Below are positions 245 through 62,985 of a stretch of 64,000 nucleotides of DNA, piece by piece. Positions within the stretch are counted from its first letter, which is position 1; each line of letters begins with the position of its first letter. The DNA lies in contig CAXXLX010000001.1 of assembly GCA_963665235.2 (NCBI GenBank), positions 4,224,001 to 4,288,000 of the forward strand, read 5' to 3'. The notes below the pieces were generated by a model that ran no database searches, had not been told where the DNA came from, and saw nothing but the letters and a program-made list of their open reading frames with translations. The translations under genes and the position numbers were made by a program. The stretch comes from Candidatus Poribacteria bacterium (GTDB lineage: Bacteria; Poribacteria; WGA-4E; WGA-3G).

Positions 245-1210
245 TTAATACCACATCGCCTTATCAACAACATTTTGTAGCGGTTTTCCCGCAGCGAACC
301 GTCGCGCATTTTCTAAGAAAATCTCAAACCGACGTTCTGCAATATTCTTCGCATCCTTAACAGCGATATGCGGTGTTATCAACACATTCGGCATTTGCCA
401 CAGCGGACTTTCGGCAGGCAACGGTTCAACTTCAAACACATCCAACCCACATCCCGCAATACTCCCCTGTTCTAGTGCCTCGACAAGGTCAGCAAGTTTT
501 GTCGTTTTGCCACGGCCGATATTGATAAAGTAAGCGGTTGGTTTCATCAGTGCGAATCGGTCTTTGTGCCACATGCCCTCCGTTTCAGGTGTGTGCGGGG
601 TCGTGACGATAACAAAGTCAGCGCGCGGCAGGAGTGTGTCTAATTCGGCAGGGGCATGTTTTTCAACGAAAGGCACTGCATGCTCCCATCTTGCGTCAAC
701 GCCGAGCACTGCCATGCCAAATTCGGCACAGAGCCGCGCGGTTTCATGTCCGATACCCCCTACGCCAACAATCAACGCAGTCGCCTGTTTGAGGTCAATA
801 TATTCACTTTTGCGAGCGTTATGGCTCCAGGTGCCTTCCCGTTGTGCATCCATATAGTAGGGCAAGCCGCGCGCCAGCGCGAGCACGAACATCATGATAT
901 GTTGTGCAATATGGTCGTTGTAAATACCCCGTGGGTTGCAAACGACCACGGGATGTTCAACAAGGGCAGGATAATAATAGCCGGGGAAGGGGCCAGCGGC
1001 GGGATTTTGTAACCAACGTAGGTTTTTCGCTAACGGCAATTGTTCAGGAGACACCCACCCGTAGACCGCCTCTGCATCGGGGAGATGTACGTTCACCTCT
1101 TCATCTGTCTTCGGTAAAACGACGGTATATTCGGGCAATTCGTTTTGAAGACGTTCAGCCCATGTCTGTGATTCCGAGTTCTGCGGGGGCATTATAATAA
1201 GTTTCGGCAT
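245..1210 (-). CDS. D-2-hydroxyacid dehydrogenase (NAD-binding)
   Basis: GVGGIG Rossmann motif, INIGRG, LDVFEVEP and ITPHIA catalytic motifs. Confidence 0.92.
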   Translation of the reverse strand: MPKLIIMPPQNSESQTWAERLQNELPEYTVVLPKTDEEVNVHLPDAEAVYGWVSPEQLPLAKNLRWLQNPAAGPFPGYYYPALVEHPVVVCNPRGIYNDHIAQHIMMFVLALARGLPYYMDAQREGTWSHNARKSEYIDLKQATALIVGVGGIGHETARLCAEFGMAVLGVDARWEHAVPFVEKHAPAELDTLLPRADFVIVTTPHTPETEGMWHKDRFALMKPTAYFINIGRGKTTKLADLVEALEQGSIAGCGLDVFEVEPLPAESPLWQMPNVLITPHIAVKDAKNIAERRFEIFLENARRFAAGKPLQNVVDKAMWY

Positions 1211-1309
1211 GATTTCCGTTCCTCTCTGTTGCTTTTACGGTTTAAGATATGCCTATTTTAGCATAGCAGCATCAGAGGTGCAAGGTTTTTTTGGGGTTTG
1301 AAAAATTTG

Positions 1310-1339
1310 TTGACAATTATTATTGTTTAACGCTATAAT
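1310..1339 (+). promoter_or_regulatory. Consensus sigma70 promoter for the helicase operon
   Basis: TTGACA (1310-1315), 18-nt spacer, TATAAT (1334-1339); AGGAGG precedes ATG 1389. Confidence 0.75.
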
Positions 1340-1388
1340 TTCATCTATGCAGTTGAAAACCCTTACCCATGGTTATAGGAGGCTTGAA

Positions 1389-1583
1389 ATGAATATCCAA
1401 ACGATACTAAATCAAAAGATGGAAGAACTCCGTCCCCGGGCCCCGGAACTTCACGCCCTTTTGGATAAAATTCTTAAAAACAGAGCGGGTCAGGGCGATT
1501 ACACTATTGACCGGCACAAACTACCTGAACAGGATATTGAGGCGATTCTCAAAGAAATTCAACAAGCACAGAACCCGGAATAG
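1389..1583 (+). CDS. Small hypothetical protein, first gene of the XPB-Bax1 operon
   Basis: Strong Shine-Dalgarno; 3-bp gap to the helicase gene. Confidence 0.6.
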   Translation: MNIQTILNQKMEELRPRAPELHALLDKILKNRAGQGDYTIDRHKLPEQDIEAILKEIQQAQNPE

Positions 1584-1586
1584 AGA

Positions 1587-2975
1587 ATGGAAGTTATGGA
1601 AACGCCCCTAAAACTCAACTTTGATAAAGGCACCCTCACCCTACAGAACGTCCCAGAGGCACTGCAAACACAACTGGTACATATCCGCTGGGACGAGCGT
1701 ACCCTCACTTTTCGCGCACCTGCCTATCACTATCGCCACATTGTTTCGCAGCTGCGGGCACACGACATCCCGTATCAGGACACCGCCCGACAGTTCACAG
1801 TGGAATCCTTCACAAACCAAAAAGATGTAACCCCTTATCCGTACCAAACTGAGGCGATTGATGCTTGGCACGCCAACGGGAAGCGTGGCGTTATTAGTCT
1901 ACCGACAGGTGCTGGCAAAACACTCATCGCGATTATGCTAATTGCGGATACACAACGGCCTACGCTTGTGCATGTGCCAACGTTGGATTTAATGCACCAG
2001 TGGTATGACGTACTCACAGAACACTTCAATCAAAAGGTGGGTTTGTATGGGGGCGGGTATCACGAATTGGAGCCGCTTACCGTGACGACGTATCAATCCG
2101 CGGTGATGCATACACCGTATTACGGCAATCGGTTCGGTTTCGCTATTTTTGATGAGTGTCACCATCTGCCGGGGGAGCAGTATCAATACGCGGCCCTCAG
2201 CAGTATTGCCCCGTTCCGTTTGGGTTTGACAGCTACACCTGAACGCGTTGATGGTAAAGAGACGCGGCTCTATTCCCTCGTCGGTGAACGTTGTTATGAG
2301 GCGAAGGTGCAAGACCTTTCTGGGAAAACGTTGTCGCCATATCGTGTTGTCACGATAGCGGTTGAGATGGAGGACACGGAGCGGGTTCGGTACGAGGAGG
2401 CGCGTAGCATCTACCTGAATTTTCTAAAGCAGGAGAAGATTAATATGGGAAGTCCACGCGGGTGGCAAACATTTCTCTGGAAAACGTCCCGCTCCGAAGC
2501 GGGACGCGCGGCTTTCAAAGCATATCTCACCCAAAAACGTCTCAGTTTTGCCTCCACCACAAAACAGGAGTGGGTGTGGAAACTCATACAGCGGCATCGC
2601 GGGGACCGGATTCTCATTTTTACGCAGGATAACGACACGGCGTATCAACTCGGAACGCGTTTCTTTTTGCCTGTCCTAACGCACCAGACGAAACTGAAGG
2701 AACGGAACGCTTTTCTGAACAACTTTCGCGATGGCACCTATTCTATCCTAGTCACCTCCAAAGTGCTGAACGAAGGTGTGGATGTACCGGAGGCGAACGT
2801 TGCCATTATTGTTTCTGGGAGTGGCAGTGTACGGGAGCATGTGCAACGGCTTGGACGTATTCTCCGTAAGCGGGAAGGCAAACAGGCAGTGCTCTACGAG
2901 CTCATCTCTAAACAGACCGGCGAACATTTTGTTAACAAACGGCGGAGACAACACCACGCTTACCAACCGAGGTAG
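1587..2975 (+). CDS. XPB/Rad25-like superfamily II DEAH helicase
   Basis: LPTGAGKT, DECHH, GLTATPER, QRLGRILR motifs. Confidence 0.9.
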   Translation: MEVMETPLKLNFDKGTLTLQNVPEALQTQLVHIRWDERTLTFRAPAYHYRHIVSQLRAHDIPYQDTARQFTVESFTNQKDVTPYPYQTEAIDAWHANGKRGVISLPTGAGKTLIAIMLIADTQRPTLVHVPTLDLMHQWYDVLTEHFNQKVGLYGGGYHELEPLTVTTYQSAVMHTPYYGNRFGFAIFDECHHLPGEQYQYAALSSIAPFRLGLTATPERVDGKETRLYSLVGERCYEAKVQDLSGKTLSPYRVVTIAVEMEDTERVRYEEARSIYLNFLKQEKINMGSPRGWQTFLWKTSRSEAGRAAFKAYLTQKRLSFASTTKQEWVWKLIQRHRGDRILIFTQDNDTAYQLGTRFFLPVLTHQTKLKERNAFLNNFRDGTYSILVTSKVLNEGVDVPEANVAIIVSGSGSVREHVQRLGRILRKREGKQAVLYELISKQTGEHFVNKRRRQHHAYQPR

Positions 2976-2986
2976 GAGACAAAACG

Positions 2987-4219
2987 ATGCTCACCAAAAA
3001 CCTGCTCCGATACAAAATTCAGAGTGGGCACATCGTACCCCAATTTGTCAATCCATCAGATAGCGAACTGTTGGCAATCGCTGAGCAATTAATCGCGGTT
3101 TTTGAGGAATCTCCAAATCAGCAGCGGGCGGCGGTTTTGCAATCCAGCAAGCAAATTATTGATGCTACCCCGGGGGTACTTGTAGTCAAACGTGGGCTTG
3201 AAAAACTTCTATTGGACCGGACCGAGTTTGATACCGCGCCCAACGAGGAGTTGATTGCATTTCGGCAAAAACTCTTTACAGAGACAAGTCGCTTGCTTTC
3301 GCACGAACCGTTTCCGAGCTATGATGATTATCAGCAACGCGTGCAAGCGACGTTTGATGAAACGGACCTTGGGGCGAAACTCTACGCCGATTTACCAAGT
3401 TGCCAACCGGTTGTCGCATTTAAAACGGTCTCTGCTGAACGTTTACTGCACCGCTATAACGCCGCGCAGGTGCAAGGATTGCTTCTCCACTGTAACACGC
3501 TCACGCTCACGCTTGCCGATTCCATGACGGCTGAACTGCGGCAGCTGTTCAAATATCTGAGATTCAACCAACTCCTCTCTACAATTCGGAAGGAAGCGGA
3601 GGCGCGGTATCAGATTACAGTGGATGGTCCACTTAACCTCTTTTACAAAACGAAGCGGTACGGCATGAATCTGGCGAATTTTTTCATGGCGGTGCTGCAT
3701 CAACCGAAGTGGGAACTGACTGCCGAAATTCAGTTTCGGAATTCGCGCTCCTATAGATTGTGTCTTGATGAATCGTGCGGTATCGCGCCTATTTCGCAAC
3801 AATTTCTCGCCTATATCCCCGAGGATATCCAACTTTTTCAGGCGATGCTCCGCAATAAGACAGATGAATGGGACATCAGTCCGGGTAGCCATTTCCTCCC
3901 TTTAGTCGGTGAACTTTACTGTTTTCCTGATTATATCCTCACTCACAAAAGCGGTGTTAAAACGGCGATTGAGCTATTTCATCCGTGGCATCAAGGGCAT
4001 CTGATTGCGCGGCTCAACACGTTGGCTGAACAGAGCGATGTATCTCTTATCCTCGGTGTTTCAGGGGAATTGAAAAAAAAGCCGCCTATCGCCGAGGCAC
4101 TCGCAGCATCGACGTATTTCTCACAGTTCGGTTTTACCTTCCGGGATGTTCCAACGATGCGTGCGCTCCTTCCGATTTTGAATTCGCTCGTTCCCGCTGA
4201 AAGTGGGAACGATAATTGA
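2987..4219 (+). CDS. DUF790 / Bax1-like endonuclease
   Basis: MLTKNLL start, LLHRYNAAQVQGLL, DGPLNLF..KRYG, FPDY..IE nuclease-like motif; directly follows the XPB gene. Confidence 0.82.
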   Translation: MLTKNLLRYKIQSGHIVPQFVNPSDSELLAIAEQLIAVFEESPNQQRAAVLQSSKQIIDATPGVLVVKRGLEKLLLDRTEFDTAPNEELIAFRQKLFTETSRLLSHEPFPSYDDYQQRVQATFDETDLGAKLYADLPSCQPVVAFKTVSAERLLHRYNAAQVQGLLLHCNTLTLTLADSMTAELRQLFKYLRFNQLLSTIRKEAEARYQITVDGPLNLFYKTKRYGMNLANFFMAVLHQPKWELTAEIQFRNSRSYRLCLDESCGIAPISQQFLAYIPEDIQLFQAMLRNKTDEWDISPGSHFLPLVGELYCFPDYILTHKSGVKTAIELFHPWHQGHLIARLNTLAEQSDVSLILGVSGELKKKPPIAEALAASTYFSQFGFTFRDVPTMRALLPILNSLVPAESGNDN

Positions 4220-6133: not shown

Positions 6134-6162
6134 TTGCCTTTTTCAAAAAATAGTTGTATAAT
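6134..6162 (+). promoter_or_regulatory. Sigma70 promoter of argG, probably giving a leaderless mRNA
   Basis: TTGCCT, 17-nt spacer, TATAAT; ATG starts 7 nt after the -10 box; no Shine-Dalgarno. Confidence 0.6.
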
Positions 6163-6168
6163 TTAATT

Positions 6169-7407
6169 ATGAATATTCATCAATTAATAGGAAAAACTGT
6201 CGGGGCTGCCGTTTCAGGCGGGCTCGATAGCTGCACAATTACCAAATGGTTAGTCGATAAAGGGGTCAACGTTGTCTGCTTTACAGCTGACCTCGGACAA
6301 CCGGACGAACGAAACGTCGAAGAAATTCGGGAACGCATGCTGGCATGTGGCGCGCAAGAGGCGGTCATTGTAGATGCAAAAGATGCCTTGGCGGCGGAAG
6401 GCCTCCGGCTCATTCAGTGTCAAGCGATGTATGAAGGGGGGTATTGGAACACAACAGGCATCGCTCGACACGTTACGGTAAAAGCACTGCTGCCGGAGAT
6501 GGAAAAACGGGGTATCACTATTCTGACGCACGGGGCAACAGGACGCGGGAACGACCAGGTCCGTTTTCAACTTGCAACCAATATGCTTTCCCCACACTTC
6601 TCTGTTTATGCGCCGTGGCGAGACGGTGAATTCCTGAAACAGTTCGGCGGCAGAAAAGAGATGATAGATTTCTGCCAAGCACACAGCTTACCGATTACTG
6701 CAACACATGAAAAACCCTACTCAACCGATGCGAATTTGTTGGGATTGACGCATGAAGCGGGTAAGTTGGAATCCCTAAAAACGCCGGCTGACTTTATTAC
6801 GCCGGGAATGGGGGTGCATCCGAAAGACGCGCCGGATGATATAGAACACTTCACCGTAACTTATGCGCGAGGCATACCTGTCGAGGTGAATGGAAGCCCT
6901 TGCACACCGCTTATGAGTTTGCTCGAAGCCAATCGAATTGCGGGGCGGCACGGTGTAGGCATCGGCATTCACACTGTTGAAAACCGGTTTGTCGGGATTA
7001 AAAGCCGAGGCGTTTATGAGTCGCCAGGGATGGAATTGTTAGGGCAGTGTTACGAATATCTGCTCCAACTGATTTTAGACCGCCGGGCGCGGCGGCATTT
7101 CGAAAGTGTAGCGGACACAGTTGCAGAACAGATCTATCAGGGTTACTACTTTGATGCTGCCACACAGGCACTGCTCGCTTCAATTGAACCGTTGACACAT
7201 TTGGCAAGCGGGACTATCACGGTAGCACTCTATAAGGGAAATGTAGCGTTTCACGCTGCGAGCGGTGTTCCGCATTCACTCTACTCCGAGGAGACCGCGT
7301 CTATGGAGGCAATTGGCGATTTCGACCACGCCGATTCGGAAGGTTTTCTGGCAGTGCTTGGGGTTGGGGCACGCGCATCGGCTATTGCAGGGCAGACATC
7401 AGAGTAG
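6169..7407 (+). CDS. argG: Argininosuccinate synthase
   Basis: SGGLDS, HGATGRGNDQVRF, YSTDANL, ENRFVGIKSRGVYE motifs. Confidence 0.96.
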   Translation: MNIHQLIGKTVGAAVSGGLDSCTITKWLVDKGVNVVCFTADLGQPDERNVEEIRERMLACGAQEAVIVDAKDALAAEGLRLIQCQAMYEGGYWNTTGIARHVTVKALLPEMEKRGITILTHGATGRGNDQVRFQLATNMLSPHFSVYAPWRDGEFLKQFGGRKEMIDFCQAHSLPITATHEKPYSTDANLLGLTHEAGKLESLKTPADFITPGMGVHPKDAPDDIEHFTVTYARGIPVEVNGSPCTPLMSLLEANRIAGRHGVGIGIHTVENRFVGIKSRGVYESPGMELLGQCYEYLLQLILDRRARRHFESVADTVAEQIYQGYYFDAATQALLASIEPLTHLASGTITVALYKGNVAFHAASGVPHSLYSEETASMEAIGDFDHADSEGFLAVLGVGARASAIAGQTSE

Positions 7408-7449: not shown

Positions 7450-7526
7450 GATGTAAAGGGGTGTATTGCGCTCGGGATTCCGGCCCCGAGAGTAAACGGA
7501 GGATAACACAATACTTCGGCCCGCAC
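7450..7526 (-). ncRNA. Second Y-RNA-like element (YrlB/Yrn1-like), possibly degenerate at the 3' end
   Basis: Minus strand GCGGGCCGAAGTATTGTGTTATC; GTATTGTG pairs with CGCAATAC; internal hairpin CTCGGG/CCCGAG; basal stem is poor. Confidence 0.55.
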
Positions 7527-7533
7527 AAATGCG

Positions 7534-7676
7534 ACTCTGGATAAGGATTGGAATGCATTTTGATTTGCTCTTCCACTGAGCTACAGTAGGCTTCACATGA
7601 CACATGCTCAGACTGCTGGCAGGGCTCGAACCTGCGACCTAATCATTATTGATAACACACTCTCTCGACCCAGAGT
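7534..7676 (-). ncRNA. yrlA: YrlA-type tRNA-like bacterial Y RNA
   Basis: Terminal stem ACTCTGG/CCAGAGT; bulged-C helix GT(C)GAG/CTTAT; stem GAGTGTGTT/AATGCATTC; then T arm GCAGGTTCGAGCCCTGC, a looped acceptor-like stem and D arm TAGCTCAGTGGAAGAGC in permuted order. Confidence 0.82.
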
Positions 7677-7751
7677 TTAAGTTCGGCTACAAATCAGAAG
7701 AGGCTGCCGAGATTCCTCAGGCAGCCTCCATCCCATTATGACTAGTTATAT

Positions 7752-7781
7752 ATTGTAACACATTTCTAGGCTGGTTGTCAA
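7752..7781 (-). promoter_or_regulatory. Sigma70 promoter upstream of the Y RNA pair
   Basis: Minus strand TTGACA, 18-nt spacer, TACAAT with extended -10 TG; no convincing ORF downstream. Confidence 0.72.
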
Positions 7782-7848
7782 ATTAAAATTTTGGGGTTTT
7801 CTGTCCCTCAAAATTTCCGCCATGGTAGGAGGCATTCTCGACATGCCT

Positions 7849-8049
7849 TCATTCATCTTTTTCATACGGATCGGTTTTCGTCAGTTCCCCATTTGGCAGT
7901 TCGTAGTAGATGTGCCCATTAAAAGAGTAGACGTTGGGAATTCCCTTTTTGCGATTCTCTTCCTGTGCTTTTCTGACAGCCCGATTGGCAATCTTTTGCA
8001 TCTCATGTGCCCATTTGTAGATTTCAGGGCTTAGTTTATCTTGACCCAT
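7849..8049 (-). CDS. Small partner protein of the zeta-like ATPase
   Basis: Overlaps the stop codon of the ATPase; ANRAVRKAQEENRKKGIPNVYS.NG.I.YELPNG pattern. Confidence 0.75.
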   Translation of the reverse strand: MGQDKLSPEIYKWAHEMQKIANRAVRKAQEENRKKGIPNVYSFNGHIYYELPNGELTKTDPYEKDE

Positions 8050-8633
8050 TATGTACCTCCATTGCTAACGTCTCGTATAAACAGTTCAAAGAACTCTCTA
8101 TCTGTGACAGTGAATTGATCCCCCTTACCAAAGGCGACCTCCTGGGCATGTTCCCCAGAATTGTAGTACAAACTCCAATGGTCCACCTGATTTTTGTAGG
8201 TGTGCCAGAAGTTGCGTTTGCTACGATAAAATCGACGGACAATGTCCTCCGTTGGTACATGGTGTCCGCCGCCTCTCACTCGATTTTGCACACGTTTGAT
8301 GCACATCTCAGGGGATTTGAGAAAGATAAAGACAATTGTAACTGTCCATCCAGCATCTTGCAATTGATGGATTATCCGCTCAAACCCTTTTCCTGATAGG
8401 GTGACTTCGACAGCAAAATCCTTCTCCGCTTCGATGAGTCGGTAGAGCTCGTCGAAAAATAGGCGGCCTGCTTGAATTTTAACTTTGTCAAAGTCCGCTG
8501 TCGTGGTGGCCAGTTTTTCTGCGATAAAGTCGGCACTAATGTATTCTGCCGCCGAATCACGGAGATATTCAGACGCGAACGTTGTTTTACCCGCCCCGTT
8601 TGGACCGGCGATGATTGTTACATTTTTTGGCAC
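8049..8633 (-). CDS. Zeta-toxin-like / COG4185 P-loop ATPase
   Basis: IIAGPNGAGKTT, RVQNRVRGGGHHVP. Confidence 0.85.
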   Translation of the reverse strand: MPKNVTIIAGPNGAGKTTFASEYLRDSAAEYISADFIAEKLATTTADFDKVKIQAGRLFFDELYRLIEAEKDFAVEVTLSGKGFERIIHQLQDAGWTVTIVFIFLKSPEMCIKRVQNRVRGGGHHVPTEDIVRRFYRSKRNFWHTYKNQVDHWSLYYNSGEHAQEVAFGKGDQFTVTDREFFELFIRDVSNGGT

Positions 8634-10800: not shown

Positions 10801-10856
10801 GTTTGCATATTTTCAGATTATGCTACAGAACGCAAGAAGAGGACGGTGAAGATATC

Positions 10857-11660
10857 ATGCAGCTTTTAAATGAAGCTTTTCCTGTCAATCAACTTTTATT
10901 AGGCGACTGTTTAGAGATTCTTCCCGCTTTTCCCGATGACAGTTTTGATTGTTGTATCGCCGACCCGCCCTTTAATGCTGCGAGCCCGAAAGGGTTGGGA
11001 TGGGCATTTAGTTCCCATGTTACCATACAGGAACAGTGGGATATGTTTTCAAAGGACGACTATTTTCAATTCACGGTTAATTGGATTAGAGAGGTTTTGA
11101 GGGTACTAAAACCTAACGGAAACCTGTTCGTTTTCGGCTCTTTTCATTGCATTTTTACAATCGGGTTTATTCTTCAAAGTCTATTTAACAGGCGGATAAT
11201 CTCTCAAATTGTTTGGTATAAACCGAATGCACAACCCAATATTACCTGCCGAATGTTTACCGAGTCTGCTGAATTTATCCTGTGGGCTGTTAACAATGAA
11301 AGCGAGAAAGCTAAAAATTGGACGTTCAATTATGAAACTGTGAAGGCGATGAATAAGGGAAAGCAGATGCGAAACGTATGGGAAATTCCGCTGACTAAGC
11401 CTTCAGAACGGAGGCATGGGGAACACCCATCGCAAAAGCCGCTGGCAGTTATCAATCGACTTATTTTAGCGGGCACAAATGAAGACGACCTTATTCTCGA
11501 TCCGTTTTCTGGAACCGGAACGACAGCGGTTGTCGCTGAACAGCATAACCGAAAATGGATTATGATTGAGAAGGACGAGGCGTACCATCAAATTGCTCAT
11601 AAGCGAATCGATGAAGTGTCTCATAGATTATTGGAGGATGATTCAGAAATTGAGTGGTGA
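10857..11660 (+). CDS. Beta-class N6/N4 DNA methyltransferase (DpnB-like), orphan
   Basis: DPPF motif IV is N-terminal; KQMRNVW, HPSQKP, DPFSGTGTT motif I. Confidence 0.9.
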   Translation: MQLLNEAFPVNQLLLGDCLEILPAFPDDSFDCCIADPPFNAASPKGLGWAFSSHVTIQEQWDMFSKDDYFQFTVNWIREVLRVLKPNGNLFVFGSFHCIFTIGFILQSLFNRRIISQIVWYKPNAQPNITCRMFTESAEFILWAVNNESEKAKNWTFNYETVKAMNKGKQMRNVWEIPLTKPSERRHGEHPSQKPLAVINRLILAGTNEDDLILDPFSGTGTTAVVAEQHNRKWIMIEKDEAYHQIAHKRIDEVSHRLLEDDSEIEW

Positions 11661-29232: not shown

Positions 29233-30030
29233 TCAATTGCGATTCAGATTTTTTAGGGACCCCCACATCGTGGCGAGTTTACCGCGCGGTTCCACATCAA
29301 GCAGCGTATTCGCTTCCAAGTTGTTAATCTCTTTTTCAGTGAGAACAGCGTTATAGATTCTGGCATCTTCAACACGCGCGACGACCCAACCGTGAGCCGT
29401 TCCACCGATAAGGGCACGGGGACCAAAAAGAGCCTCTACATCGCCAGCCACCCAAGACACGATTTGTCCCTTTGTATAGTCGCCAATTACTTCGCCATTA
29501 CGGTATATCATAATCTTTGCACTATTGTTGGCATTCTCATAAGAAATCGCCAATTGAATGAGTTTACCCGTTTCTTTTTCCGCAGTACCATGCGGATCAT
29601 TGTGGGTGCGTCTAAAGAAACTGCTGCCAGCCATCCAATGCCTCGCATGTTTCTCTGCGTAGACGATAGCATCAAACGTGTCTCCACTGCTCTTATTCAC
29701 TGCAAGTGGCGCGCCATGTGTAGTGTCAAGATTGTCTAAATAGAGCCACGCCACTAGGGTTTTCTCGGGCCCAATCTTTGGACCTTTATATCCGGTGGTC
29801 AATGCCCACTTACTGTTGCCGATGTGCAATTTGCCATCTTTGACCTCCGCTCCTTTAAGGTCAATATCGCCAAAGTTGCCGGTAAGGTCTTGCAGCTCAG
29901 CACCTCTTTCAAAGGTCCAATGTCCAATCAAATCTTCCTGCTTCTCTGCCTGCCCTAACGCTGGCAATGATAAGCCGAGCAGAAGCAGCACAGAGAATCC
30001 CAACATGAAAGTGTCTGATAAACGGTTCAT
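29233..30030 (-). CDS. Secreted LamG/ConA-like protein with KLATxWG tail
   Basis: Signal peptide, HWTFE, ARIYNAVLT; tail VEPRGKLATMWGSLK. Confidence 0.8.
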   Translation of the reverse strand: MNRLSDTFMLGFSVLLLLGLSLPALGQAEKQEDLIGHWTFERGAELQDLTGNFGDIDLKGAEVKDGKLHIGNSKWALTTGYKGPKIGPEKTLVAWLYLDNLDTTHGAPLAVNKSSGDTFDAIVYAEKHARHWMAGSSFFRRTHNDPHGTAEKETGKLIQLAISYENANNSAKIMIYRNGEVIGDYTKGQIVSWVAGDVEALFGPRALIGGTAHGWVVARVEDARIYNAVLTEKEINNLEANTLLDVEPRGKLATMWGSLKNLNRN

Positions 30031-30130
30031 AGTTATCTCCTCTGTTGTGTTAATTCGGGTTAAGGTTTCGGACGTTAAAGCTAAGGATACCACATGTAAT
30101 CAAAAATGTCACGTTAATTTCATAATTGCA

Positions 30131-33458: not shown

Positions 33459-34082
33459 ATGGCGATAAGTGCTGTCCAAACATACCTTAGCCCAGAAGAA
33501 TACATCGCTTCAGAACGTAAAGCAAAACCTGACGCGAACACAGTCAGAAATGAATATATTCAAGGTGAAATTATCGCTATGTCCGGGGCAAGTTTTACAC
33601 ATAATCTTATTAAAGGGAATATCTTTGTTCAACTTCACAATCGTTTGATAGAAAGCAGCTGTGTCGTTTTCGCCAATGAAATGCGTGTCGGTATCCCTTC
33701 AGCAAAATCCTACTTTTACCCTGATGTAGGCGTCGTTTGTGATGAACCGCGCTTTGAAGACAATGTTTTTGACACACTCCTGAACCCGATTGTTATTGTA
33801 GAGGTCCTCTCTCCAAGCACCGAGGGCTATGATAGAGGTGAAAAGTTCTCGCGCTACCGACAGGTCGCTTCCTTGAAAGAATATATCCTTGTTTCACAAG
33901 ATAGCGTGAACGTTGAACGTTTTCTGCGAAAACGTGATGATTGGAGTTACACTTTCTTTCAAGGACTTGAACAGCAACTTCCGTTAACGTCTCTTGAGTG
34001 CGAATTCCCCTTGCAGGAAATATACAAGCGCGTCACATTTCCTGAAACGTCTGAGGGCACTATATGTACTACTCAGGGTTGA
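33459..34082 (+). CDS. Uma2-family endonuclease
   Basis: YFYPDV, VEVLSPST, EYILVSQD. Confidence 0.9.
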   Translation: MAISAVQTYLSPEEYIASERKAKPDANTVRNEYIQGEIIAMSGASFTHNLIKGNIFVQLHNRLIESSCVVFANEMRVGIPSAKSYFYPDVGVVCDEPRFEDNVFDTLLNPIVIVEVLSPSTEGYDRGEKFSRYRQVASLKEYILVSQDSVNVERFLRKRDDWSYTFFQGLEQQLPLTSLECEFPLQEIYKRVTFPETSEGTICTTQG

Positions 34083-34107
34083 GGCTTTTCTAAGACCTAC
34101 AAGCATT

Positions 34108-34440
34108 ATGTCTGAAGTGAATATACAAACAATCCGCAATAGAATTCGCGGAGATAAATATCTTACAAAGCCTCATGCTGTGCAACATGCTTTGAAAGAG
34201 GGTTTTGAACGTAAACATATAGTTGAAGCGATTCTCAGTGGCGATATAATCGAAGAATATCCAGACGCGCAGCGAGTTTTAATTTGTGGGCGCGCGCACT
34301 TAAGCAATATCACAATTTACCTGCATGTTGTTTGTGAATATGCCCACCAGGACTATATCGAATTTGTGACAGCTTATATTCCTGACGAAGTTCAATGGGA
34401 ACCTCCAACCTTCAAGCGTCGGAGACGCAGAAAGAGATAA
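34108..34440 (+). CDS. DUF4258 toxin-like protein
   Basis: HA..., G.IIEEYPD, LHVVC, VTAYIPD..W. Confidence 0.82.
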   Translation: MSEVNIQTIRNRIRGDKYLTKPHAVQHALKEGFERKHIVEAILSGDIIEEYPDAQRVLICGRAHLSNITIYLHVVCEYAHQDYIEFVTAYIPDEVQWEPPTFKRRRRRKR

Positions 34441-40488: not shown

Positions 40489-41802
40489 ATGCTAAAGCGT
40501 GTCAAAATTCAGGGGTATAAATCTCTAGCGGACGTTGAGGTACATCTCGGCCATCTCGCCGTACTTGTCGGACCGAACGCCTCAGGAAAAAGCAACTTCC
40601 TCGATGCGTTGCAACTGCTGTCACGCTTAGCCACCTGTCAGACACTGAAAAAAGCGTTCGCACCCCCGCATCGGGGGTTTCCTTTAGAATCTTTCACCTT
40701 TGGAGAATCAGGCATCGCGGGGCTACGAGAACAAGAGAACGTGTCGTTCTGTATCGAGGCGGATATTCAGTTAACACCCACGGTCATAGAAAATGTCAAC
40801 TCCCAAATACAGAAAATGACACCCACGAGGGGTAACAATACAGGCAAAAATGCATCAAAGCGATTAACGCTTGTGTGTGAGAAAAACCTCCGGTACCGTA
40901 TTACAATTGAAATGCTACCGAAGTTAGGCACCCTGCGGGTAGCAGATGAATATCTCGTCGCCCTCAGCAAAAAAGGAGCAGTGAAACAGAATAGGAAACC
41001 GTTTTTACAACGTGTTGACGATGAACTGCATCTGCGTTTAGAGGGAGAAACACATGCAGCACGCTATAAGCAGCCGCTCGACCAGACCATCTTATCCATG
41101 CCCCATTCTCCGCTACACTACCCACACGTAGTCGCGCTCCAGCACGAATTCGCCAACTACTTCACACACTATTTTGAACCTCGAGAACGTATGCGGATAC
41201 CTACACCTGCCGCTGAAGTTCACCATATCGGATTGATGGGAGAAGACCTCGCGGGGTACCTCAACACATTGAGAACGCACAATCAACGACAGTTCGAATC
41301 CATAGCGAAAGCCCTCCAGCGTATAGTGCCTGCTGTAACCGGAATCGATGTCTGTGTGAATAAAGTAGGAGAGGTCGAACTACACCTCCTCGAAGGTGAA
41401 AAGCGGATTTCTGCACGGTTGCTATCGGATGGAACGCTCCGAATTCTGGGACTTTTAGCACTCGTCGGTTCAGAAAAACCACCGACACTCATAGGATTTG
41501 AAGAACCAGAAAACGGGGCACATCCACGTTACATAGATCTGATAGCCAAATTTTTAGACACCCGCAGGCTCCTTGAACGCACCCAGTACATCGTGACGAC
41601 ACATTCACCGCTTTTAACAGAATTTATTCGCCCCGAATTTTTCTATGTCTGTCACAAGGTTGATAGGAATACAACAATAGAACCCTTTTTGACGCGTGTG
41701 CAATCGTTATGGCCGAAATTAAATCTAAAAGAAGCCATGAAAAAAAACAAAAATGATATGTCCATTCCCAATCGTATCTTACGGGGAGATCTGGATGTAT
41801 AA
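40489..41802 (+). CDS. AAA_21 ABC-type ATPase
   Basis: GPNASGKSN, LSDGTLR, FEEPENG, TTHS. Confidence 0.9.
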   Translation: MLKRVKIQGYKSLADVEVHLGHLAVLVGPNASGKSNFLDALQLLSRLATCQTLKKAFAPPHRGFPLESFTFGESGIAGLREQENVSFCIEADIQLTPTVIENVNSQIQKMTPTRGNNTGKNASKRLTLVCEKNLRYRITIEMLPKLGTLRVADEYLVALSKKGAVKQNRKPFLQRVDDELHLRLEGETHAARYKQPLDQTILSMPHSPLHYPHVVALQHEFANYFTHYFEPRERMRIPTPAAEVHHIGLMGEDLAGYLNTLRTHNQRQFESIAKALQRIVPAVTGIDVCVNKVGEVELHLLEGEKRISARLLSDGTLRILGLLALVGSEKPPTLIGFEEPENGAHPRYIDLIAKFLDTRRLLERTQYIVTTHSPLLTEFIRPEFFYVCHKVDRNTTIEPFLTRVQSLWPKLNLKEAMKKNKNDMSIPNRILRGDLDV

Positions 41803-54480: not shown

Positions 54481-54545
54481 CGAATCGCGAGCACAGCTCG
54501 CTCCTACAGAAGAGTGGACTGCAAAACTTGATTGAGGCTTTTAAA

Positions 54546-55829
54546 ATGGCTATATTAGAAGGTTTCAGGATAAGAAATTTCGGTGTGCTCAAGGATATCA
54601 CATTGGGCCGCCTGTGGTACCAATGGGATAGAACGGAAGCGGAGGCACTCACGCCAATTACGGCCGTAATTGGCAAAAATGGCGTAGGAAAGAGTGCTTT
54701 ATTTGACAGTTTCGGTTTCCTATCAGATGCCCTAAAATCCGATGTTGAGACTGCCTGCGATGCACGCGGACGCGGCGGCTTTGACAAAATTCGATCGCAA
54801 GGCGTTACAGCACCCATGGCATTTGATGTGTACTACAGAGAACACGGAAATGCCAGACCTATTACATACCAACTTGTCATTGATAAAGATGAATTTGGAC
54901 GACCCTATGTCCTCCATGAACGTTTCCGCCAAAGACGAAAAGGACAGAAACGGGGACAACCATTCTCCTTTCTGATACTCCGTAACGGGAAGGGTATAGC
55001 TTGGAAAGGGGAACAAGCAGGACATCAGTTCGATGAAGAGCCCGAAGACTCACATACGTTCATAGAAATTATAAAAGCAATGGAATCTCCGGAAACAGAG
55101 AATGTTGAATTGGATGACCCCCGAAAACTCGGCATTGCCACACTCGGTGCCTTGAAGCAGCATCCCAGGATTTCCGCCTTCCGCAGGTTCATTGAGGGAT
55201 GGTATCTCAGCTACTTCACCCCAGACGCAGCACGCAGTCTGCCGCTTGCCGGGCCCCAGGAACATCTCAATATTCATGCGGATAACCTCGGCAACGTCGT
55301 GCAATTCATGGAACGTGAACACCCCCGCCGTTTCCAAACAATTCTCGCGAAGATTGCTGATAAAATTCCGGGAATAGACCGAATCGATACCGAGAAAACC
55401 AGTGACGGTAGACTGCTAATCAGATTTAACGACAAAGCTTTTCAAGACCCCTTTTACGCCCAGCAGATGTCCGATGGAACGCTCAAACTGTTTGCTTACC
55501 TACTGCTGCTCGAAGATCCGGCTCCCCCCCCGTTCCTCTGTATTGAAGAACCGGAAAATGGGCTGTATCATAAACTTTTGGAGACCCTTGCCACCGAATT
55601 TCGTGCCCATGCCACAGGACGTAAGGGAGGGACACAAGTTTTCATTACAACACACCAACCCTACTTTGTCAACGCGCTAGGACCGAAAGAGGTCTGGCTT
55701 CTGGAAAAGGGCGAAGACGGTTTCTCCAAAATCCGCCGGGCGAGCGACGACTCACTCGTCAATAACCTTGTTGAAGAGGGACTGCCCCTGGGCGGACTCT
55801 GGTACAGCGACTATCTTGATCTGAGGTGA
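54546..55829 (+). CDS. AAA_21 ABC-type ATPase
   Basis: GKNGVGKS, MSDGTLK, IEEPENG, TTHQP. Confidence 0.9.
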   Translation: MAILEGFRIRNFGVLKDITLGRLWYQWDRTEAEALTPITAVIGKNGVGKSALFDSFGFLSDALKSDVETACDARGRGGFDKIRSQGVTAPMAFDVYYREHGNARPITYQLVIDKDEFGRPYVLHERFRQRRKGQKRGQPFSFLILRNGKGIAWKGEQAGHQFDEEPEDSHTFIEIIKAMESPETENVELDDPRKLGIATLGALKQHPRISAFRRFIEGWYLSYFTPDAARSLPLAGPQEHLNIHADNLGNVVQFMEREHPRRFQTILAKIADKIPGIDRIDTEKTSDGRLLIRFNDKAFQDPFYAQQMSDGTLKLFAYLLLLEDPAPPPFLCIEEPENGLYHKLLETLATEFRAHATGRKGGTQVFITTHQPYFVNALGPKEVWLLEKGEDGFSKIRRASDDSLVNNLVEEGLPLGGLWYSDYLDLR

Positions 55830-58965: not shown

Positions 58966-59467
58966 TTTTCTATTCCAAAAGCCGAAGTGCTTCTCAGCGT
59001 CAGTTTTCACTTCCTTAGGATAGGATATAGCGCGTGCCTCCTGCCATCATATTAGCTTCGTAGGGGCGGGGTCCCCCCGCCCGCTAGGTTTCCTTAGAGG
59101 GCCCATTATCATAAGACTTATCAACGCGCTGCGTAAGTCCTACAATTTTGAGGTGCGTAAGTTCTAAGCGTTAATAGTTTAGCAGGTTTCAGACAGTTTG
59201 GCAATGAAGACCAGGGTCATAATAAAAAAAAAATCGTAAAAAAACTTGGTATTTGTGCAAATCTATGATATACTTAATAACAGTATTTGGGAAACCTAAC
59301 AGTCTATTCCTTTACTTGAATCGAAAAACGGCATGGTATATACTAACGCGTATTAGAGCAGAAACGTCTAAGAAAGGGGGAGTGTTGCTAATAGGTATCA
59401 TAGAAGCGGACGAAACCTATATCATTATTCTGTTCCTCTTTAGATACTTAAAAACCGCACTTCGTGT

Positions 59468-60306
59468 ATGATTGTAAATGTTATACGGAACGAAAATTGC
59501 ATCGATACAGTGGGCAAATGAGTGACGAATTTGTTACCCTTGTTGTGACCTCACCCCCCTATGATGAAATGCGAGAATATGAAGGCTATATGCTTCACGA
59601 TTTTGAATCAATCGCAGCTCAATTATTCCGCGTTATAAAGTCCGGAGGAGTGGTCGTTTGGATTGTCGGCGATCAAACAAAAAATGGGAACGAGTCAGGA
59701 ACGTCATTCCGACAAGCACTACATTTCAAAGAAATTGGTTTCAACCTATTTGATACCATGATCTACCTGAAACCCCCCAGAGGTGCTGTTGGCAATAACA
59801 AAACTTATTGGCAATCGTTTGAGTATATGTTCGTTCTCAGTAAAGACAAACCGAAAACGATTAATCTTATTAAGGATAGGAAGAATAAGCAAGCGCGAGA
59901 AGGAGACAGCGGAACAAAACGACTCCCTAATGGCAGTTTACTAAAGATGAAACGTAGCGGTTATGAGGAATACGGCAGAAGAACAAATGTTTGGGAGTAT
60001 ATGATTGGGAGTGGACATTCTGCAAGTGATAAGATAGCATACCAGCATCCTGCTATCTTTCCTGAAAAATTAGCACGTGACCATATCCTTTCATGGAGTA
60101 ATAAGGGGGATTTGGTATACGATCCATTTATGGGAAGCGGGACTGTTGCACTCATGGCAAAATTAAGCGACAGGGATTATATCGGTAGCGAAATAAATGA
60201 GAACTACTGTGAAATTGCTAAAGCCAGACTCAATAAATACAACTGTACTGCTATCGGAAATTCGGGCCACCCTCTAAACCAAGATTGTGATATAATAACA
60301 ATCTAA
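59468..60306 (+). pseudogene. Beta-class N4-cytosine-type DNA methyltransferase, probably frameshifted at the 5' end and clipped by IS3 at the 3' end
   Basis: TSPPY, HPAIFP, DPFMGSGT; ATG 59468 reads MIVNVIRNENCIDT then stops, one base out of frame with the main ORF. Confidence 0.7.
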
Positions 60307-61809: not shown

Positions 61810-62985
61810 TGTTTAAAGGAAAGGGAGTTCGTATCAAAAACTTTTTAAGTTTACGAGATGTTACGCTTCCATTAAAACCGTTGACGGGCTTGTGGGCGCG
61901 AATGCAAGTGGAAAACAAACATCTTATTGCGTTTTCTCAAAGGATGATGGTTGATGATTAGATGGTATTTGAAGCATTGAGCGAAGATTTCAGTTTTGCG
62001 GGTAAAGGACAAGAAATTACTTTCCAATTACAGACGAAAGTAGCAGAACACCAAACCTTATACAACTTAGTAGTAAAGAACCCCCTATTGGTCTCGCCTT
62101 GAAGAAAATTTATCGGTTAATAATGTAGACGTGATTTCAATCCGAGACGGAAAGGGAGTCGTTAGGGATGAAAACGGTGAGGGTAGAACACATATAACTC
62201 TAATGAACTTGCTTTGGGCTCGGCAGAAAATTACGAAAATAAACCGATTACACGCACTTAGCTGAGTTTATTAAGGAATGGGAACTTTATCGTTTTTCGA
62301 CTGACGTAATACGACTTATTCTTTCAGATTTCTCTCCCCCTGAAAAAGAGATGCAAGAGTCCCCAAGGCTTGAAAGGGATGGTGTGGAGGTACCAGAGGT
62401 CCTTTGGTACTGGCATAAATATTTTCCAGAGCGTTTCCGAAACGTCAGTGATTCGCTTGCATCAAGCACGAATATTGAAATAGACCTACGTCCGATTGAT
62501 GGACAAGAACAACTTTGTCTATGGAAGGGTACGAGAAACCTATTCAATTAAGGAGAGCATCTGATGGCACACTGCGGCTGATTGCATATTACATCCTGCT
62601 CAACATGCCCGAATTGCCGCCGCTCATTGCGATTGAAGAACCGGAGCGGAATTTACACCCTGGTGCCCTAACAGACATCGCAAATGTGCTTGAGCGAATC
62701 GCACAATATTCTCAGGTCATTATTACCACACACAGTTCAGAACTGCTTGGTGCCTTTAATCGTGAAAGTTTGGGAGATTCACTCGGGGTTTTACTCTTAA
62801 ACAACCGTCCCGGTTTCGGCACAGAGGTGCTCAACCTTGAGGATTACCGCGGTCAAAGGAAGGCACTTGATGGGTGGATTGCAGATTTCGGAATTGGTAG
62901 TGCTGTCTTTGATAGTGGACTGTTGCAAGATGTTCTGGAGGATAAATCCAGGAAAGATACTGTGAAACGTTATCTCCCGAAGTAG
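61810..62985 (+). pseudogene. Multiply frameshifted AAA_21 ATPase
   Basis: IKNFLSLRDV, GANASGK, then ASDGTLR, IEEPERNLHP and TTHS in different frames. Confidence 0.78.

Follow-up and report, generated by a model that had tools for sequence, protein, structure and literature searches.

A YrlA-class Y RNA gene and a truncated YrlB-type RNA beside argG: a probable relocated copy of an rsr-linked Poribacteria array

The locus and its gene neighbourhood

The window, by which we mean the whole 64-kb stretch of DNA that was analysed, carries on its minus strand a promoter, a leader with a hairpin and two small RNAs, RNA1 and RNA2, which are convergent with argG. An earlier note on this DNA had described the RNAs as a self-standing Y RNA locus. 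The features of the locus are given below in the coordinates of the window. R1 is a covariance model that was built from alignment A4, containing 58 rsr-linked YrlAs from other phyla; the window and its close relatives were excluded from it. Alignment A2 compares RNA2 with six YrlB-like RNAs of sister loci.

8049-8633, minus: AAA_33/Zeta_toxin-like P-loop protein of 194 aa (Pfam), upstream of the RNAs
7849-8049, minus: 66-aa ORF upstream of the RNAs, beside the 194-aa protein
7781-7752, minus: sigma-70-type promoter, TTGACA-18-TACAAT with a TG extension, 11 of 12 consensus matches
7729-7700, minus: leader hairpin GGAGGCUGCC...GGCAGCCUC, GC-rich (energy computed for the whole 69-nt leader)
7699-7691, minus: U-rich run UUCUGAUUU, directly after the leader hairpin
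7676-7534, minus: RNA1, YrlA-class Y RNA of 143 nt with an intact tRNA-like module (R1)
7676-7664, minus: 5' strand of the basal Ro-binding-type helix, ACUCUGGGU, bulged C at 7667, GAG; pairs with 7545-7534
7656-7636, minus: GUUAUC motif (itself 7656-7651, contains YUAY) and V-arm hairpin
7635-7619, minus: T arm GCAGG-UUCGAGC-CCUGC (Rfam and R1 alignments)
7618-7584, minus: acceptor-stem-like (AS) arm, long, with two mismatches (alignment columns 62/93 C-A and 65/90 U-C)
7581-7567, minus: D arm GCUC-AGUGGAA-GAGC (Rfam and R1 alignments)
7545-7534, minus: 3' strand of the basal helix, CUU then AUCCAGAGU; pairs with the ACUCUGGGU side
7524-7456, minus: RNA2, retained part of a YrlB-class Y RNA (A2)
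7455-7446, minus: expected site of the 3' strand of the RNA2 basal helix, unrelated to the G(U/C)CCGC of the sisters
6154-7407, plus: argG, argininosuccinate synthase (PF00764, PF20979), convergent with the RNAs

The minus-strand promoter of the earlier note was found, as was the hairpin that it had described after the promoter. Transcription is predicted to start at approx. 7745. Between 7000 and 8300 this was the only promoter-like site; shuffled sequences contained 1.4 on average, and the scan by itself was thus not significant. The 69-nt leader (7745-7677) reached -27.4 kcal/mol (z = -3.2), and one of 200 shuffles was equally stable. The leader hairpin may serve as a 5' stabiliser, as an attenuator or as the terminator of an upstream operon, and together with UUCUGAUUU it could end transcripts ahead of RNA1; it was not called by the terminator scan. 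The same scan detected no terminator-like site downstream of RNA2, thus transcripts would continue antisense into argG. Within the leader a stray GCCGAAC motif was seen at 7686-7680 (minus).

Upstream of the RNAs lies the zeta-like ATPase pair of the earlier note, consisting of the 194-aa protein and the 66-aa ORF. NCBIfam gave weak nucleotide-kinase matches for the former and none for the latter. Among the gene products of the window Pfam identified WD40, sulfatase, LamG and GFO/IDH/MocA proteins; this content, with the similarity of the RNAs and promoter to those of Poribacteria (see below), suggests a Poribacteria-like organism. Genes of defence or mobile type were located at 10803-11660, 33459-34440, 40489-41802, 54528-55829, 59464-60306 and 62515-62985; the defence-type set comprised two N6_N4 DNA methylases, three AAA_21 (AbiEii-like) ATPase ORFs (one of them short), Uma2 and DUF4258, and toxin-antitoxin-like ORFs were also present. 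The window looks like a variable, rearrangement-prone region. At 1587-4219 (plus) the gene of an XPB-type helicase (ResIII, XPB_DRD, ERCC3 C-terminal) precedes that of a DUF790/Bax1-like endonuclease, and the two make up a bacterial XPB-Bax1 pair.

The window reaches 7.4 kb downstream of the RNAs, the side on which rsr lies in the sister loci, and 56 kb upstream. No Ro60 gene was detected in either direction, as the earlier note had stated for the vicinity. Pfam found neither TROVE, vWA_Ro60 nor RtcB among the 49 ORFs of the window, and a local Ro60 HMM (see below) detected no TROVE at E <= 1e-3 in the six-frame translation of the 64 kb.

Class and integrity of the two RNAs

Judged from its sequence and predicted fold, RNA1 is a tRNA-mimicking Y RNA of the YrlA class. 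The ends of the 143-nt RNA pair, as had been claimed for it, and they form a 9-bp stem, a single bulged C and GAG/CUU. The GGGUCG of RNA1 fits the near-invariant GGG(C/U)CG of 59 rsr-linked YrlAs. In its motif GUCGAG the final A of GNCGAA is changed to G, and the same variation was found in rsr-linked sisters and in alignment A3. According to Chen 2014 (PMC4201824) the motif of such RNAs is GNCGAAN0-1G. The YUAY motif has been described for the V region of YrlA in the same paper (Chen 2014, PMC4201824); GTTA is invariant across the 59 rsr-linked YrlAs. Further inside follow the tRNA parts in the permuted order that the earlier note had described, with the T arm first, then the acceptor-like arm and then the D arm. 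The T-loop UUCGAGC, the D-loop GG and the G15/C48-type positions are present.

The structure of RNA1 was compared with that of its relatives in alignment A1, which consisted of nine Poribacteria-type sequences with a 38-pair structure (35 pairs from RNAalifold and 3 beyond the bulged C). RNA1 kept 36 of the 38 consensus pairs and the sisters kept 34-38; both mispairs of RNA1 fall in the AS arm, where the sisters are mismatched too. Over the whole alignment 95.6% of the cells were paired and nine pairs had changed on both sides, and compensatory changes were found at two pairs of the basal helix among the nine copies. None of 500 shuffles reached the covariation score of A1, and sliding the partners by 1-3 columns lowered the pairing to 38-48%. 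The conserved pairing in relatives, which had been named beforehand as a check, is thereby borne out.

Compared with L101_V, a YrlA of a sister array, RNA1 was 82% identical (113/138). The 25 differences touch 11 pairs, of which 9 stay paired and 4 have changed on both sides. In simulations 25 random substitutions left a mean of 27.7 of the 38 pairs, and 36 pairs were reached in 0 of 20000 runs. We concluded that the divergence of RNA1 preserved its structure; since all of it may predate the rearrangement discussed below, it is no proof of selection at the present site. RNA1 is also mosaic in make-up, resembling the V-type copy of the sister arrays in its V arm and 3' strand and the short-type copy in its outer stem and AS arm. 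For the AS arm 23 of 31 positions agreed with the short-type copies and 18 of 30 with the V-type.

The R1 model matched the window at 7676-7532 (minus) with 72.9 bits (E 1.8e-18) over all 134 model positions, and in the 64 kb RNA1 was its sole strong match on either strand. The rsr-linked copies of Poribacteria scored 65.7-78.8 bits under R1, the range into which RNA1 falls. The consensus of A4 contained 27 pairs, with compensatory changes at 18 of them. These results support the YrlA identity that the earlier note had proposed. In a permissive search the YrlA model RF02553 aligned with the tRNA-like core of RNA1 (7643-7561, model positions 23-87) at 27.5 bits and E 9.4e-4, but the gathering score of 69 bits was not reached, and at gathering thresholds no Rfam model matched anywhere in the window. 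As a control, 14 YrlA matches in 10 rsr-linked loci were scored with the same model; they obtained 31-45 bits, and none of the 14 reached 69. Since rsr-linked YrlAs also stay below 69 bits, the gathering threshold is uninformative outside the seed taxa, and with a model this narrow the missing gathering match of RNA1 is no argument against its membership. Permissive Rfam matches to ciliate telomerase RNA, snoR30 and a lncRNA were dismissed as chance-level.

Genome contigs were scanned with a pattern consisting of GTTAYC, a T loop and a D-arm start, which was found in at least 121 stretches. By ARAGORN 30 of the 121 listed matches were tandem tRNA pairs, and most of the others had the YrlA layout. 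That the scan does catch tandem tRNAs gives some room to the explanation that RNA1 is not a Y RNA, being instead a degenerate tRNA pair (the T arm of one tRNA and the D arm of its neighbour) or a structure that arose by chance. A weak match of the Rfam tRNA model (15.3 bits, 7677-7619) points in the same direction, as does the MFE z-score of RNA1 alone, which was only -1.47. ARAGORN, however, detected no tRNA anywhere in the window, the 143-nt unit is closed by an end pairing that shows compensatory changes, R1 matched it over its full length and the close homologues of RNA1 adjoin rsr. On these grounds a tandem-tRNA origin was rejected, and we regard the explanation as a whole as scarcely credible. 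When the RNA region was searched by blastn against a phage collection, the only matches were 31-32-nt T-arm matches to phage tRNAs in 7 records; a plasmid collection gave no match.

TROVE was counted in the 59 non-tRNA loci with 2-kb flanks among the matches listed, with Pfam applied to the two longest ORFs of each locus (to three in L039, L055 and L063). Pfam detected TROVE in 38 of these 59 listed loci, mostly together with vWA_Ro60, and a local HMM made from those 38 detected it in 46 of the 59 at 60 bits or more. Within the listed TROVE-bearing loci, those with shorter flanks included, all YrlA-pattern matches (61/61) lay on the rsr strand. Strong R1 matches whose 2-kb flanks contained no TROVE were found in L024 (an Obscuribacterales chromosome), L065 (Anaerolineae) and L069 (a Gaiellaceae MAG), the first two at about 97.6 bits. 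The TROVE match of L070 was weak (32 bits), and in L075 rsr was about 5 kb away. We concluded that the detachment of YrlA from rsr is uncommon, not unique.

Several further RNAs were observed in the survey. L069 contained at least nine R1 matches on one strand within approx. 3 kb (~815-3668, plus), the best with 103.5 bits; they may represent an extensive array of Y RNAs that has no linkage to rsr. In L035, L036 and L044 YrlA-like RNAs with a 5' strand of the GAAUGCC...ACUACA type adjoin RtcB; nearby TROVE-like matches in L035 and L036 were weak only. A 5' strand of this type is found in the Rhizobium entry of the seed alignment of Chen 2014 (PMC4201824). Beside rsr, L076:3462-3535 (plus) matched the nematode sbRNA model RF01656 with 42.4 bits (gathering score 38) and L009:1541-1610 (plus) matched it with 32.9 bits. 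These two sbRNA-like RNAs are probably YrlB-type Y RNAs.

RNA2 begins 9 nt past RNA1, and the Y-like unit extends to about 7446. Its parts are the 5' strand GCGGGC[C]GAAG, with which it starts, a helix GUAUUGU/GCAAUAC and a lineage-specific loop hairpin at 7490-7471. RNA2 repeats UGUGUUAUC, a 9-mer of which the window contains exact copies at two places only, 7651-7659 and 7502-7510. R1 gave 14.2 bits (E 0.064) for RNA2, its only other match in the window, and the Rfam Y RNA and sbRNA models gave no match to RNA2 at E <= 10. The second Y-like RNA of the earlier note was confirmed: its GCCGAAG (7520-7514) fits the YrlB-type motif GNCGAAN0-1G, and by alignment A2 it is of the YrlB kind; the loss of its closing helix had gone unnoticed. 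In the six sister YrlB-like RNAs the 5' GCG(G/A)GC[C]GAAG and the 3' UUG(U/C)CCGC form a helix with a bulged C, a geometry that has been likened to the vertebrate Ro60 site GGUCCGA (Chen 2014, PMC4201824). Four of the six core basal pairs are broken in RNA2, compared with 0-1 in the six sisters, and overall RNA2 kept 12 of 16 pairs where the sisters kept 15-16. The homology to the sisters ends after CCUU (7456), inside the 3' strand of the helix. Over its first 29 nt RNA2 does not differ from L101_B2, the final YrlB in L101, which is consistent with a recent event or with selection on RNA2 having continued. Most likely, in our view, the rearrangement left RNA2 behind as a crippled by-product. 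Its 5' strand was retained, and as Ro60 mainly contacts the 5' strand of Y RNAs (Chen 2014, PMC4201824) some residual binding may, by analogy, be possible.

Sister arrays beside rsr and the origin of the locus

Close homologues were found in at least four loci from Candidatus Poribacteria MAGs (L039, L055, L101 and L106), all with the order consensus promoter, YrlA, YrlB-like, YrlA, YrlB-like. One of the YrlAs has a V arm and the other has none, and they alternate with the two YrlB-like hairpins (L101:186-645, minus). rsr directly follows the array in L039, L055 and L101; the sequence of L106 stops inside the second YrlA. Pfam identified ORFs with TROVE and vWA_Ro60 at L039:3-1541 (minus) and L055:3-1790 (minus), and downstream of the L101 array the local Ro60 HMM matched TROVE with 68.9 bits. 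A LamG-domain gene lies upstream of the arrays in L039 and L055. Among the literature matches listed we found no description of rsr-linked Y-RNA arrays in Poribacteria, and the searched supplements of Chen 2014 (PMC4201824) contain no Poribacteria entry.

When the window was compared by blastn with the four sister loci, matches were obtained at 7495-7676 and 7746-7789 only. The latter stretch showed that the promoter of the window is homologous to that of the L101 array (L101 740-783, 84% over 44 nt). The homology to the sisters is confined to the promoter and 7676-7456, and both flanks of the window locus differ from the sister loci. No homology was found between the leader of the window and that of L101, and the hairpin is lineage-specific. 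The place of rsr in the sister loci is held by argG, from whose stop codon the end of the homology is 48 nt away. The window contains a LamG gene of its own at 29233-30093; it was rejected as an orthologue of the sister LamG genes that might have marked an emptied ancestral site, as it shared 31% identity over 48 residues and is a paralogue at best. A link of the RNAs to the zeta-like kinase pair was also rejected, since the pair is not conserved in the sister loci, which have the LamG gene instead.

The proposal of a self-standing locus with a special role, either in trans or independent of Ro, does not stand as it was worded in the earlier note, for the sister arrays run into rsr. An adjacent rsr in sister genomes had been named there in advance as the result that would reduce the proposal, and it was found in L039, L055 and L101. 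With rsr adjoining the array in the sisters, the locus of the window is reduced to a rearrangement. We consider it probable, from the sequence comparisons, that the locus is a relocated and partly truncated copy of the Y-RNA array that lies upstream of rsr in Poribacteria-type genomes. The copied block would extend from approx. 7789, just upstream of the -35 box, to 7456, and would contain the near-consensus promoter, the lineage-specific leader hairpin, a complete YrlA and approx. 90% of a YrlB-type RNA. The 3' strand of the bulged Ro-binding helix of RNA2 would have been lost at a breakpoint near argG, which would leave the block between the toxin-antitoxin-like pair and argG. RNA1 would be transcribed from its own promoter and would fold into the basal bulged helix and the tRNA-like module. 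It is most likely still a working YrlA gene, because its promoter is near consensus, its fold appears complete and its score is like that of rsr-linked copies. YrlA and Yrn1 tether Ro60 to PNPase in D. radiodurans and S. Typhimurium (Chen 2014, PMC4201824). By analogy with these characterised RNAs it is possible that RNA1 acts in trans, binding a Ro60 whose gene, rsr, would be encoded elsewhere in the genome.

The truncation of RNA2 at the breakpoint could also be expected if the whole locus were a silent relic, left over from the rearrangement or from a loss of rsr and under no selection, in which RNA1 is intact because the event was recent. The 5' part of RNA2, identical to L101_B2, fits such a young event. 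The richness of the region in mobile and defence-type genes (toxin-antitoxin-like ORFs, methylases, AAA_21 ATPases and Uma2) and the terminator-like hairpin between the promoter and RNA1 are also consistent with a relic. The promoter, however, still matches the consensus at 11 of 12 positions, and RNA1, with 36 of 38 pairs, scores like the rsr-linked copies and has its mismatches in the AS arm, as the sisters do. We therefore hold a silent relic to be unlikely.

A very improbable explanation, in our judgement, is that the genome has no rsr and that RNA1 is a tRNA mimic independent of Ro, being a decoy or substrate for tRNA-binding enzymes and possibly tied to the zeta-like kinase. It draws on the absence of TROVE from the 64 kb and on the intact tRNA-like module, and L024, L065 and L069 likewise have strong YrlA matches without TROVE within 2 kb. 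YrlA RNAs are moreover known substrates of tRNA-processing enzymes, namely tRNA-modifying enzymes, RNase P and the CCA-adding enzyme (Chen 2014, PMC4201824). RNA1 has, however, fully kept its basal Ro-binding-type helix and the bulged C in it, which would be unexpected were Ro60 irrelevant, and since the sister arrays have a LamG gene upstream, where the window has the kinase pair, there is no conserved link.

Apart from the relocation itself, we asked what it would mean if selection had maintained an intact YrlA gene with its own strong promoter at a great distance from rsr, or in a genome that has no rsr. This stronger claim we consider doubtful. If it were true, bacterial Y RNAs could be dispersed, independently expressed genes, and in a variable, defence-rich region they would either target Ro60 in trans or mimic tRNA independently of Ro.

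Comparison with known Y RNA systems

At present the locus of the window ranks as an ordinary fragment of a known system, displaced by rearrangement. The literature already describes YrlA and its mimicry of tRNA, YrlA and YrlB genes in tandem, and acceptor-like arms that are long (Chen 2014, PMC4201824; 2018 structure preprint 10.1101/312249). The survey of Chen 2014 (PMC4201824) covered TROVE-containing genomes and reported YrlAs within 4 kb of rsr. Unlinked YrlA copies were excluded by design from that 4-kb survey (Chen 2014, PMC4201824); the window, together with L024, L065 and L069, shows that such copies exist and that their structure can appear intact. Provided that they are expressed, the dosage or repertoire of Y RNAs could be regulated apart from Ro60. 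The Rfam YrlA model is too narrow, as it missed every rsr-linked YrlA that was tested with it (14 matches in 10 loci). In addition, arrays of four RNAs, two YrlA and two YrlB, are here documented upstream of rsr in Poribacteria.

Compared with the rsr-linked arrays of Poribacteria, the window has the same order of YrlA then YrlB, a homologous promoter and in RNA1 a YrlA 82% identical to L101_V. It differs in having one YrlA and one YrlB where the sisters have two of each, in its other leader, in the absence of rsr and in the replaced 3' strand of RNA2.

As a class, YrlAs are bound by Rsr/Ro60 and carry tRNA modifications (pseudouridine 55, dihydrouridine). Compared with YrlA (RF02553), RNA1 differs in its motif, GUCGAG and not GNCGAA, and in its Rfam score of 27.5 bits against 69. 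rsr is absent within 4 kb, where Chen 2014 (PMC4201824) required it on the same strand, and in the 64 kb as a whole. RNA1 shares with YrlA the paired ends, a GNCG-type motif with a bulged C, the YUAY start of the V region, the permuted order of T arm, acceptor-like arm and D arm, and a smaller second Y RNA adjacent to it. Its long AS arm is like those reported in cyanobacteria and delta-proteobacteria (Chen 2014, PMC4201824). RNA2 differs from YrlB-type RNAs in that its 3' strand and the closing bulged Ro-binding helix are lost, whereas the 5' strand with the bulged C, which it has in common with its sisters, resembles that of YrlB/Yrn2-type RNAs, metazoan Y RNAs and nematode sbRNAs.
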